From a virus (taxonomy: Duplodnaviria; Heunggongvirae; Uroviricota; Caudoviricetes), in IMG/VR virus record IMGVR_UViG_2711768072_000007, positions 1 to 5,596 of that record: a DNA stretch of 5,596 nt. One strand, written 5' to 3'. Below the pieces are notes generated by a model. That model saw nothing but the letters and a program-made list of their open reading frames with translations, made no database searches and had not been told where the DNA came from. Each line of letters starts with the position of its first letter. The stretch's first letter is position 1. A program made the position numbers and the translations under genes. Positions 3,059 to 5,596 of this stretch are shown here, one piece after another.

Positions 3059-3802
3059 ATGACACAGACAGAATCAGCGATTCTGGCGCATGCCCGGCGG
3101 TGTGTGCCTGCGGAGTCGTGCGGCTTCGTGGTGAGAACGCCGGAGGGGGAGCGGTATATCCCTTGTGTGAATATCTCTGCAGAGCCGGAGGCGTATTTTC
3201 GTATTGCACCGGAAGACTGGCTGCGGGCAGAGATGCAGGGGGAGATTGTGGCGCTGGTTCACAGTCATCCCGGTGGTCTGCCCTGGCTGAGCGAGGCCGA
3301 CCGGCGGCTGCAGATAAAAAGTGCACTGTCCTGGTGGCTGGTCTGCCGGGGGGAAATTCATAAATTCCGCTGTGTGCCACATCTGACAGGACGGCGCTTT
3401 GAGCACGGGGTGACGGACTGTTACACGCTGTTCCGGGATGCCTACCATCTGGCGGGAATTGATATGCCGGATTTTGAGCGTGAGGATGACTGGTGGCGCA
3501 ACGGTCAGAACCTTTACCTGGACAATATGGAGGCGACTGGTTTTTACAGGATTTCCCTGCCTTCCGCACAGCCTGGCGATATCCTGCTGTGCTGCTTTGG
3601 CGCATCGGTGGCCAATCATGCCGCCATATACTGCGGCAACGGTGAGCTGCTTCACCATCTGCCTGAACAACTGAGTAAACGGGAGAGGTATTCCGAAAAA
3701 TGGCAACGACGAACGCATTCTGTCTGGCGTCACCGCCACTGGCACGCATCTGCCTTCACGGGGATTTACAACGATTTGGCCGCCGCCTCAGCCTGTATGT
3801 GA
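3059..3802 (+). CDS. K: Tail assembly protein K (lambda gpK-like), 247 aa; N-terminal JAB/MPN (JAMM) domain plus C-terminal NlpC/P60-like Cys/His domain
   Basis: ORF 3059..3802 starts 5 nt after the L stop. Translation contains a canonical JAMM motif HSHPGGLPWLSEAD (H-x-H-x7-S-x2-D), a downstream conserved Cys (GVTDCYTLFRDAYH) and His (NHAAIYCG). Overlaps the start of I by 103 nt in another frame, as in lambda K/I. Confidence 0.9.
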   Translation: MTQTESAILAHARRCVPAESCGFVVRTPEGERYIPCVNISAEPEAYFRIAPEDWLRAEMQGEIVALVHSHPGGLPWLSEADRRLQIKSALSWWLVCRGEIHKFRCVPHLTGRRFEHGVTDCYTLFRDAYHLAGIDMPDFEREDDWWRNGQNLYLDNMEATGFYRISLPSAQPGDILLCCFGASVANHAAIYCGNGELLHHLPEQLSKRERYSEKWQRRTHSVWRHRHWHASAFTGIYNDLAAASACM

Positions 3803-4380
3803 ACACGGCAGCGGAAGCCATTCGCGCCCTGTCGATGCAGATGCCGGGCTTTCGCCGTCAGATGAACGAAGGCTGGTACCAGATACGTATTGCCGGTGAT
3901 GACACGGCACCGGAGGCGGTGTACGCCCGTCTTCACGAACAGCTGGGTGAGGGAACGGTCATCCACATTGTGCCGCGACTGGCCGGGGCCGGAAAGGGTG
4001 GACTGCAGATTGTGCTGGGGGCGGCAGCCATCGTGGGCTCTTTCTTCACTGCCGGAGGCTCGATGGCGTTATGGGGTACAGCCCTGAGTGCCGGTGGTTT
4101 TTCTGCCACCACGATGCTGTTTTCACTGGGTGCCAGTATGATTCTGGGCGGTGTGGCCCAGATGCTGGCCCCGAAGGCAAAAACACCGGATTACCGCGCA
4201 ACGGATAACGGCAGACAGAACACGTATTTTTCGTCACTGGACAACATGATTGCCCAGGGTAACCCGATGCCGGTGCCTTACGGGGAAATGCTGGTTGGCT
4301 CCCGCCGTATATCCCAGGACATCAGCACCCGTGATGAAGGCGGGGGCGGAACGGTCGTGGTTATCGGGCGACAGGGATAA
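3700..4380 (+). CDS. I: Tail assembly protein I (lambda gpI-like), 226 aa; N-terminal ubiquitin-like fold, Gly/Ala-rich hydrophobic C-terminal half
   Basis: ORF 3700..4380; translation begins MATTNAFCLASPPLARICLHGDLQRFGRR and contains GAAAIVGSFFTAGGSMALWGTALSAGG and NTYFSSLDNMIAQGN, matching lambda gpI as I recall it. Position between K and J and the 103-nt overlap with K are as in lambda. Confidence 0.9.
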   Translation: MATTNAFCLASPPLARICLHGDLQRFGRRLSLYVNTAAEAIRALSMQMPGFRRQMNEGWYQIRIAGDDTAPEAVYARLHEQLGEGTVIHIVPRLAGAGKGGLQIVLGAAAIVGSFFTAGGSMALWGTALSAGGFSATTMLFSLGASMILGGVAQMLAPKAKTPDYRATDNGRQNTYFSSLDNMIAQGNPMPVPYGEMLVGSRRISQDISTRDEGGGGTVVVIGRQG

Positions 4381-4383
4381 AAC

Positions 4384-4418
4384 ATAAAAAAATCCCGCAG
4401 TGATCGCGGAGCTGCGGG
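4384..4418 (-). terminator. Intrinsic (Rho-independent) terminator-like hairpin oriented for the minus strand
   Basis: Plus strand reads A7 (4386-4392) T CCCGCAG (4394-4400) - 11-nt loop - CTGCGGG (4412-4418). On the minus strand this is a GC-rich 7-bp stem followed immediately by ATTTTTTT. On the plus strand the run is on the wrong side (A-tract upstream, no U-tract downstream), so it is not a terminator for I. Confidence 0.6.
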
Positions 4419-4483
4419 GACAGACAAATGAAGATCAATGTTAAGGAGTTGTTTTTGTTACTCGGGCAAAAAAACACTAACGC
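4386..4483 (-). ncRNA. Candidate small RNA (~100 nt) antisense to the tail operon, defined by the minus-strand promoter and terminator
   Basis: Interval bounded by the perfect TATAAT -10 (minus strand) and the hairpin plus U7 terminator (minus strand). A+T-rich; no convincing ORF on the minus strand within it. Predicted RNA (5' to 3', approximate ends): CGCUGCGUUAGUGUUUUUUUGCCCGAGUAACAAAAACAACUCCUUAACAUUGAUCUUCAUUUGUCUGUCCCCGCAGCUCCGCGAUCACUGCGGGAUUUUUUU. Purely a sequence-based prediction. Confidence 0.3.
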
Positions 4484-4489
4484 AGCGAA

Positions 4490-4519
4490 ATTATAAGCGC
4501 CACAGTCAGTGTGTGAAAA
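4490..4519 (-). promoter_or_regulatory. Candidate sigma70-type promoter on the minus strand (-35 TTTTCA, 18-nt spacer, -10 TATAAT)
   Basis: Minus-strand sequence attTTTTCAcacactgactgtggcgctTATAATttcgc. The -10 is a perfect consensus hexamer (plus coordinates 4495..4490); the -35 matches TTGACA at 4 of 6 (plus 4519..4514). Predicted start near plus coordinate 4483, reading leftwards toward the minus-strand terminator at 4384-4418. Confidence 0.3.
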
Positions 4520-4583
4520 TGTGAAGATATTCAGAATTTTTATGCCATTACCGGTTTTAACCAACAGGATTATCGGTGGGCAT

Positions 4584-4625
4584 GAAAGAAAACCCCGGTA
4601 TCTGCTGATACCGGGGTTTCTCTTT
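4584..4625. terminator. Bidirectional intrinsic terminator-like hairpin (perfect 10-bp stem, 4-nt loop, flanked by A-rich 5' and T-rich 3' tracts)
   Basis: GAAAGAAAA (4584-4592) CCCCGGTATC (4593-4602) TGCT GATACCGGGG (4607-4616) TTTCTCTTT (4617-4625). The stem is a perfect inverted repeat read directly from the sequence. The plus strand has a U-rich tail after the stem and the minus strand has UUUUCUUUC after it. Confidence 0.65.
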
Positions 4626-4722
4626 AGCATGGCAGAAATGTGTTTCATGCTTTTCGGGCGAAGGATATCCGACTTCTGTACGGAATGGCAAGTGGCGGTT
4701 AATTTATTCAGGGGAAGGCTGT

Positions 4723-5596
4723 ATGGGAAAAGGTGGCGGTAAGGCACACACGCCTCGTGAGGCGAAGGATAATCTCAAATCCACGCAGATGATGAGCGTG
4801 ATTGATGCGATTGGTGAGGGACCGATAGAAGGCCCGGTGAAAGGCCTGCAGAGTATTCTGGTGAACAAAACCCCGCTGACGGGCACGGACGGTAATCCCG
4901 TGATACACGGTGTGACGGCGGTCTGGCGCGCCGGGGAGCAGGAGCAGACACCACCTGAAGGCTTTGAGTCCTCCGGAGCTGAAACCGGACTGGGCGTGGA
5001 AGTGACGAAGGCAAAACCGGTGACGCGCACCATTACGTCCGCGAACATTGACCGCCTGCGGGTTACCTTCGGGGTGCAGTCACTGGTGGAGACCACCTCA
5101 AAGGGTGACCGTAACCCGGCATCCGTCCGCCTGCTGATTCAGTTACAGCGTAACGGTAACTGGGTGACAGAAAAGGACGTCACCATTAACGGCAAGACCA
5201 CCTCACAGTTCCTGGCCTCGGTGATTCTGGATAATCTGCCTCCCCGGCCCTTTAACATCCGGATGGTCAGGGAGACGGCGGACAGCACCACGGACCAGTT
5301 GCAGAACAGAACGCTCTGGTCATCGTACACTGAAATTATCGATGTGAAACAGTGCTACCCGAACACGGCCATTGTGGGGCTGCAGGTGGATGCGGAGCAG
5401 TTTGGCGGTCAGCAGATGACGGTGAACTACCATATCCGAGGTCGCATCATCCAGGTGCCGTCAAACTATGACCCGGAAAAACGCACGTACAGCGGCATCT
5501 GGGACGGCAGCCTGAAACCGGCATACAGCAACAACCCGGCCTGGTGCCTGTGGGACATGCTGACTCACCCGCGCTACGGCATGGGAAAACGTCTGG
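4723..5596 (+). CDS. J: Central tail fibre / host specificity protein J (lambda gpJ-like), N-terminal ~291 codons; continues beyond the window
   Basis: ATG at 4723 preceded by GGGGAAGG (4711-4718). Frame is open to the window end, which is why it is absent from the supplied ORF track. My translation begins MGKGGGKAHTPREAKDNLKSTQMMSVIDAIGEGPIEGPVKGLQS, very close to the lambda gpJ N-terminus as I recall it. Last complete codon ends at 5595. Confidence 0.9.
   Translation, partial: MGKGGGKAHTPREAKDNLKSTQMMSVIDAIGEGPIEGPVKGLQSILVNKTPLTGTDGNPVIHGVTAVWRAGEQEQTPPEGFESSGAETGLGVEVTKAKPVTRTITSANIDRLRVTFGVQSLVETTSKGDRNPASVRLLIQLQRNGNWVTEKDVTINGKTTSQFLASVILDNLPPRPFNIRMVRETADSTTDQLQNRTLWSSYTEIIDVKQCYPNTAIVGLQVDAEQFGGQQMTVNYHIRGRIIQVPSNYDPEKRTYSGIWDGSLKPAYSNNPAWCLWDMLTHPRYGMGKRL

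Follow-up and report, generated by a model that had tools for sequence, protein, structure and literature searches.

Phage morons, as described by Juhala and Hendrix with reference to HK97 and HK022, are stretches of extra DNA lying between genes that are adjacent in lambda, furnished with their own promoter and terminator, lower in G+C than their surroundings, and expressed from the prophage. One of them, the sodC moron, is found in O157 and Gifsy-type prophages. Lambdoid prophages of pathogenic E. coli also encode short Hfq-binding sRNAs, among them the anti-sRNAs AgvB and AsxR (Rfam RF02702 and RF02703), whose locus lies 3' of PR', downstream of stx or of a moron site.

A further sRNA of this kind is PasB (pathogenicity-associated sRNA B), encoded in prophage PP6 of EPEC E2348/69 (Pearl Mizrahi et al. 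2021, PMC8550237). Table S6 of that paper places PasB at NC_011601.1 1466343..1466261, on the minus strand, with a length of 83 nt and a Northern probe of sequence AATCCCGCAGTGATCGCGGAGCT. Northern blots and RNA-seq showed that PasB is expressed in the lysogen, and Northern blots that its stability depends on Hfq; in a comparison in Table S2, read here as delta-hfq versus wild type, pasB RNA is lowered, with log2 values of -6.8 and -2.4 (PMC8550237). PasB is more abundant in LB (the non-activating condition) than in DMEM (the activating condition), and in the RIL-seq entries consulted for E2348/69 its chimeric fragments number 1820 in the non-activating and 258 in the activating condition (PMC8550237). 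Those entries give 37 unique partners, 30 of them coding sequences or 5'UTRs and none an sRNA, with PasB as the second RNA of the chimera in fractions of 1.0 and 0.987 (PMC8550237). Earlier, EcOnc22, EcOnc23 and EcOnc24 of the Sp15, Sp14 and Sp11 prophages of O157:H7 Sakai had been reported as Hfq-CRAC peaks with a Northern band of about 85 nt that is destabilised in a delta-hfq strain (Tree et al. 2014, PMC4104026, Table S2).

Organization of the I-J junction

The DNA analysed here, referred to as the window, is a 5,596-nt stretch of viral DNA carrying a lambda-type tail module, in which the ORF list gives H (tape measure, 23-2029), M, L, K (3059-3802), I and J. The K product has JAB and NlpC/P60 domains by Pfam, I matches Pfam Lambda_tail_I (E 1.7e-16), and J contains the Pfam GpJ FNIII-A domain; the names I and J agree with the RefSeq annotation of loci that are 95-97% identical. 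The features around the I-J junction are as follows.

3700..4380, plus strand: tail assembly gene I, as the longest ORF (RefSeq homologues begin near 3799), with TAA at 4378-4380.
4386..4419, minus strand: pasB intrinsic terminator, stem 4418..4412 / 4400..4394 with an 11-nt loop, then A and U7 (4392..4386), from scan and fold.
4386..4483, minus strand: PasB sRNA; the published 83-nt form corresponds to 4468..4386, and the promoter-predicted 5' end at G4483 gives 98 nt.
4490..4517, minus strand: pasB sigma-70 promoter, -35 TTCACA (4517..4512), 16-nt spacer, -10 TATAAT (4495..4490), 11 of 12 consensus matches.
4517..4543, no strand assigned: near-invariant block preceding the pasB -35, with constant spacing to the -10 and with the CRP-like TGTGAagatatTCAGA inside it.
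4547..4722, no strand assigned: J-proximal cassette (cass2), 176 nt, in place of the 74-85 nt cassette of most relatives.
4590..4619, no strand assigned: palindromic hairpin, perfect 13-bp repeat 4590-4602 / 4607-4619 with a 4-nt loop and tails UUUCUCUUU (plus strand) and UUUUCUUUC (minus strand).
4662..4691, minus strand: weak candidate promoter TTGCCA-18-TATCCT, 9 of 12 matches and near chance level, which with the hairpin would give a hypothetical RNA of about 70 nt.
4711..4725, plus strand: J Shine-Dalgarno sequence GGGGAAGG (4711-4718) and ATG at 4723, from the sequence and from homology to annotated gpJ starts.

The gap between the I stop codon and the J start codon (4381-4722) is exactly 342 nt, where lambda has 60 nt (I ends at 15444, J starts at 15505). 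An earlier note, made from the sequence of the window alone, had read this difference as a moron-like insertion, and both of its lengths hold, as does its hand-counted fall in G+C from about 62% (4321-4380; computed 0.617) to about 38% (4421-4520; computed 0.380). G+C over the entire gap is 0.436, against 0.585 in the upstream sequence and 0.580 in J; part by part it is 0.40 in the pasB module, 0.47 in the cassette and 0.58-0.60 in the flanks. All signals that form a coherent unit within the gap lie on the minus strand. A promoter scan of the gap region gave three promoter-like hits where 0.8 were expected, and a search for tRNA and tmRNA genes gave none.

Alignment of the I-J junction to lambda and lambdoid tail modules, which the note had proposed as a check, gave clear boundaries and a wide distribution, but not a single 342-nt insertion. 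Homology to eight relatives (E2348/69 and seven other phages) ends at 4543-4546 and resumes at 4723/4724, the start of J. On these alignments the gap consists of two modules whose histories differ: one is the pasB module (4381-4546), the other a cassette linked to J (4547-4722). Because a pasB-containing gap of about 240 nt is the norm in this lambdoid lineage, only about 100 nt are extra in the window.

Over its full length the window reaches no more than 96.6% identity with any of the complete E. coli genomes collected, although more than 800 of these contain its I-J gap at 100% identity; the tape-measure part (1-2335) has no blastn match to the E2348/69 or PPompW loci. By sequence comparison, this is typical lambdoid mosaicism.

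The pasB gene and its transcript

The segment 4381-4546 is, as identified by sequence, the pasB locus, oriented on the minus strand and thus antisense to the late operon. The Northern probe AATCCCGCAGTGATCGCGGAGCT matches exactly at 4391-4413, with 0 matches expected by chance; since the match is to the plus strand, the PasB RNA is on the minus strand. From 4361 to 4546 the alignment with the I-J gap of E2348/69 PP6 contains two mismatches, one of them within PasB, so that 82 of 83 nt of the RNA are identical, position 27 being A here and C there, a change that fits 'PasB-2' (Zhu, Shabalina & Storz 2026, bioRxiv 10.64898/2026.05.13.724894). In E2348/69, PasB likewise sits between the tail assembly gene and gpJ, and its strand relative to the tail operon, terminator and promoter region are all as in the window; what differs is the stretch from the promoter block to J, which is 74 nt there and an unrelated 176-nt cassette here. 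In every sequence-level feature of PasB the window element agrees, the 5' end counted apart. The earlier note had named lysogenic-conversion factors and regulatory sRNAs as frequent cargo of morons, which it described as active in the lysogen; the match points to the second kind of cargo, and the published work on the E2348/69 allele bears out the activity.

Both terminator-like hairpins that the note had counted in the gap are present, one at 4394-4418 and the other being the 13-bp palindrome at 4590-4619. The stem of the former, CCCGCAG (4394-4400) paired with CTGCGGG (4412-4418), is flanked on the plus strand by an A7 run (4386-4392), so that, read on the minus strand, the hairpin forms an intrinsic terminator. 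Its end is 6 nt away from the I stop codon, and its run of seven is the longest U tract in PasB.

The published 5' end (4468), derived from RNA-seq coverage, is 15 nt downstream of the predicted +1 (4483); either PasB is processed, or the RNA-seq-based end is imprecise. Given the position of the promoter and the GCGUUA at 4483, conserved at the 5' end of all 27 distinct RNA alleles collected, we suspect that the primary 5' end is the upstream one. The fold of PasB is no better than that of shuffled sequence (z = -0.97). Among the covariance models of Rfam 15, which include AgvB (RF02702) and AsxR (RF02703), none matched pasB, and the sole hit with E<=1 was a chance snoRNA in J. An AgvB or AsxR identity for the gap was rejected on this result and on the different locus of those RNAs. 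PasB resembles them as a short Hfq-binding sRNA of lambdoid prophages in pathogenic E. coli, yet it occupies the I-J position, has no sequence similarity to them and, in the RIL-seq entries consulted, pairs mostly with coding sequences and 5'UTRs and with no sRNA.

The pasB promoter and its upstream block

The consensus -10 element that the earlier note had reported, giving no strand, is the TATAAT at 4495..4490 on the minus strand, with TTCACA at a spacing of 16 nt. Across pasB alleles the -10 always keeps its A2 and T6, whereas the -35 varies. In spite of this variable neighbor, the block 4517-4543 is invariant in 37 alleles of the pasB module; it coincides with the left edge of the mosaic breakpoint, where the homology of relatives ends. 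An invariant block at a fixed spacing from the -10, combined with a -35 that is not conserved, suggests that pasB depends on an activator.

Within the block, TGTGAagatatTCAGA (4520-4535) matches 9 of the 10 core positions of TGTGA-N6-TCACA and is invariant across alleles, a match weakly above chance (0.17 expected per window). Its center lies at about -44.5, and class II CRP-activated promoters have theirs near -41.5. A CRP-like site would fit the difference in PasB level between LB and DMEM, and is offered as a lead only.

Relatives of pasB in the I-J slot

Among 5426 complete E. coli genomes, 1813 contain matches to the pasB module, at 5544 places in total and with identities between about 70% and 100%; this exceeds the 1158 near-identical PasB hits reported earlier. 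The module also matches 147 phage records, mainly of Stx-converting phages. Every allele examined (90 loci; more than 1800 E. coli genomes) occupies the same site in the same antisense orientation. The alleles differ by indels, and their -35 and 5' hairpin vary; kept across them are the -10 A2 and T6, the 5' GCGUUA, a U-run, ACUCCUU, AUCUU(C) and the terminator. No covariation was found in helices of the pasB family, the sole consensus helix being the terminator. Because that stem is invariant among 18 diverse alleles, the result says nothing for or against a PasB structure.

Alleles of pasB with 74% identity lie in 240-nt I-J gaps of Sakai Sp15, Sp14 and Sp11 (NC_002695.2; loci L093, L094 and L095; L003:601-759), and the EcOnc22/23/24 Northern probe of Tree et al. 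(2014) maps within the PasB-like body of these alleles. EcOnc22/23/24 are, on sequence grounds, diverged PasB alleles, so that a single family occupies the I-J slot. They have in common with the window pasB the I-J site, the antisense orientation, the terminator stem and the upstream block, as well as a 5' GCGUUA/GCAUUA and the UCC and AUCUU motifs, and like PasB of E2348/69 they are Hfq-dependent and about 85 nt long. They differ in having about 74% identity over the module, another 5' hairpin, a -35 that is not conserved, and linkage to the usual 83-nt J-proximal cassette. The row for PasB in Table S6 of PMC8550237 lists no EHEC homologue, and the term 'EcOnc' is absent from the main text of the 2026 preprint. 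Compared with NC_002695.2, the 2014 table seems to give the EcOnc coordinates with an offset.

The exact I-J gap of the window is carried by Sakai Sp12 (NC_002695.2 2217392-2217732, the cassette being 2217392-2217567) and by EDL933 (NZ_CP008957.1 2301757-2302097); the minus strand of the phage is there the plus strand of the chromosome. The Hfq-CRAC peak listing for Sakai (Tree et al. 2014) contains none at Sp12, although its allele is identical to that of the window. Escherichia albertii NBRC 107761 (L098) has an 82% PasB-like allele together with the 176-nt cassette; for E. albertii only PasA has been reported (Zhu et al. 2026, bioRxiv 10.64898/2026.05.13.724894). Neither the hairpin nor the probe sequence turned up in a full-text literature search.

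In a third type of I-J junction (L088:350-1200; also L032, L069, L075, L084 and L089) the gap measures 851 nt and its minus strand encodes sodC (Cu/Zn superoxide dismutase, Pfam Sod_Cu), so that the sodC moron uses the same slot and the same antisense orientation as pasB. There, sodC and a hairpin of its own are followed by a PasB-like body and terminator identical to the allele of a Stx2c phage, and the pasB -10 region is replaced; from this arrangement, the PasB-like RNA could be a 3'UTR product of sodC. Among the collected loci, I-J junctions identical to lambda in assemblies labelled Streptomyces, Pseudomonas, Shewanella, Bradyrhizobium and others (L102-L132) are most likely lambda DNA contamination, and one assembly labelled Streptomyces flavalbus (L097) carries a piece of an E. 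coli prophage that includes the 176-nt cassette.

The J-proximal cassette

Of 5426 complete E. coli genomes, 1445 have the cassette at 99-100% identity, and in all loci but one (L022, 89%) it co-occurs with a J start that is 99-100% identical. It is found with two pasB alleles, one 100% and the other about 81% identical, which places the mosaic joint within the invariant block, at 4517-4546. The only polymorphisms are 1-nt and 5-nt indels at 4620-4626, in the U-tract. A distant BLAST search for diverged copies in phages and E. coli (80 viral and 37 genome loci) recovered only sequences 97-100% identical. Such near-clonal identity points to recent spread, so conservation of the cassette says little. 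An apparent second place of the cassette in phage records was discounted, as it is most likely the palindrome matching itself on the opposite strand.

The cassette hairpin, at about -27 to -30 kcal/mol, is followed by a U-rich tail on either strand and so looks like a bidirectional intrinsic terminator. The usual 74-85 nt cassette has a plus-strand hairpin followed by a U-run, ACAGGCACCC...GGGTGCCTGT TGTTTTT (L003:770-800), and the 60-nt gap of lambda has an unrelated plus-strand hairpin, also followed by a U-run (15469-15499; L010:770-800). A hairpin and U-run just upstream of J are thus common to three I-J spacers that are not homologous, but the sodC-type junction lacks a hairpin of this kind before J. 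By anatomy and by analogy with these spacers, we infer that the cassette is a J leader carrying a bidirectional terminator or stabiliser hairpin.

Two further similarities involve the cassette. The sequence TCATGCTTTTCGGGCGAAGGATA at 4645-4667 resembles the last 25 nt of I (4355-4379; p ~0.014 by shuffling) and may be what illegitimate recombination has left of an older I 3' end. An exact 11-nt repeat, GGCGAAGGATA, occurs at 4657-4667 and at 4761-4771.

Function of PasB and alternative readings

The reading that best explains the gap, to which we assign a probability of roughly 85%, is that it holds the prophage sRNA gene pasB and a variant J leader cassette. PasB identity, promoter and terminator anatomy, module borders and distribution come from the present analysis; expression, Hfq dependence and RIL-seq come from the literature on the E2348/69 allele. 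Under this reading, pasB would be transcribed against the late operon from its own near-consensus sigma-70 promoter and would end at the U7 terminator just past the I stop codon, giving an Hfq-binding, trans-acting, base-pairing sRNA made in the lysogen. The family-conserved ACUCCUU and AUCUUC fall in a stretch that is unpaired in the PasB fold, between the variable 5' hairpin and the terminator. ACUCCUU is complementary to the Shine-Dalgarno sequence UAAGGAG, which suggests that PasB occludes ribosome-binding sites; as deduced from these motifs, the two would act as seed and anti-Shine-Dalgarno elements, pairing with the 5'UTR or start regions of host and accessory mRNAs and most likely repressing translation. 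The cassette hairpin would most likely serve as a terminator or RNA-stability element that shields pasB and J from read-through in both directions.

The observation that every allele lies at the same site in the same antisense orientation could also be explained if PasB acts mainly in cis, with RNase III cleavage or transcriptional interference reducing or uncoupling the expression of J, as well as of lom and downstream cargo, and with host mRNAs left aside. Along its whole length the RNA is, by construction, the complement of the I-J intercistronic stretch of the late mRNA, and the pasB promoter faces late transcription head-on. However, plain inheritance could account for the conserved position, PasB is abundant in the lysogen, where the late operon is silent, and its 37 trans partners and near-constant place as second RNA in the RIL-seq chimeras are the signature of a trans-acting Hfq sRNA. 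A mainly cis role is thus quite unlikely, although the cis and trans modes are not mutually exclusive. That the gap is a drifted, non-functional spacer with chance hairpins might be argued from the unexceptional PasB fold and the lack of helix covariation; it is scarcely credible beside an 82/83 match to an experimentally validated sRNA and an exact match to its probe, the retention of promoter, 5' end, seed motifs and terminator across alleles only 74% identical overall, and the published Northern blots and RIL-seq for the E2348/69 and Sakai alleles. A small protein is also highly improbable. The ORF list does contain a 77-aa ORF on the plus strand (4509..4742) and a 128-aa ORF on the minus strand (4361..4747), but both pass through terminator hairpins and the pasB promoter, a convincing ribosome-binding site is lacking in each case, the natural indels of 1 nt and 5 nt at 4620-4626 put both out of frame, and the pasB module itself varies by indels among alleles.

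The cassette raises a different question, namely whether it encodes a second sRNA on the minus strand, some 70 nt long and spanning about 4655 to about 4582, in tandem with pasB. Such an RNA would start from the TTGCCA-18-TATCCT promoter, begin with a 5' hairpin AGCAUG...CAUGCU, and end at the palindrome and UUUUCUUUC. The minus-strand fold of the cassette is far more stable than that of shuffled sequence (z = -3.9), the hairpin has a U-rich minus-strand tail, and the sodC-type junction offers a precedent for minus-strand cargo upstream of a PasB-like body in the same slot. Yet the promoter-like site, though present, has 9 of 12 matches with a poor -10, at chance level (0.8 hits per region), and the U-tail is broken up and in part base-paired within the stem. 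The near-invariance of the cassette in 1445 genomes is what recent spread would produce, Sakai Sp12 has the cassette with no Hfq-CRAC peak listed there, and the hairpin sequence was found printed in no paper by full-text search. We therefore regard a second sRNA as unlikely. A broader proposal, which is tentative and improbable as a whole, would treat the I-J junction as a two-slot antisense cargo site, in which the cassette has a function of its own, be it as a further sRNA on the minus strand or as a terminator that works in both directions and insulates pasB, and pasB depends on an activator at the CRP-like block 4517-4543.

Conclusions

The pasB unit of the window shares with the morons of Juhala et al. 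(2000) extra DNA between genes adjacent in lambda (342 versus 60 nt), its own promoter and terminator (here on the minus strand), deviant G+C and, from the literature on the E2348/69 and Sakai alleles, expression from the prophage; it differs in that its cargo is a non-coding RNA of less than 100 nt and not a protein. The moron-like island of the earlier note thus stands as to promoter, terminator, G+C and absence from lambda, and needs amending in that it is antisense to the late operon and did not arrive as one insertion. The element is a moron-like autonomous sRNA unit that is already known: the structural reading of the note was largely right, and its claim of an undescribed function was not, pasB having been published in 2021 and its relatives EcOnc22/23/24 seen in 2014. 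Since a published sRNA explains the gap, no new function is opened.

What the analysis adds to the two PasB papers is that PasB and EcOnc22/23/24 form one family in the I-J slot, that the same slot also carries sodC, and that, as judged from sequence conservation, the block upstream of the promoter and the J-proximal cassette appear as conserved units. Leads to the role of PasB are its anti-Shine-Dalgarno motif and its higher level in LB than in DMEM. If the two-slot, activator-dependent arrangement were true, it would tie the pasB family, EcOnc22/23/24 included, to carbon-source signalling.
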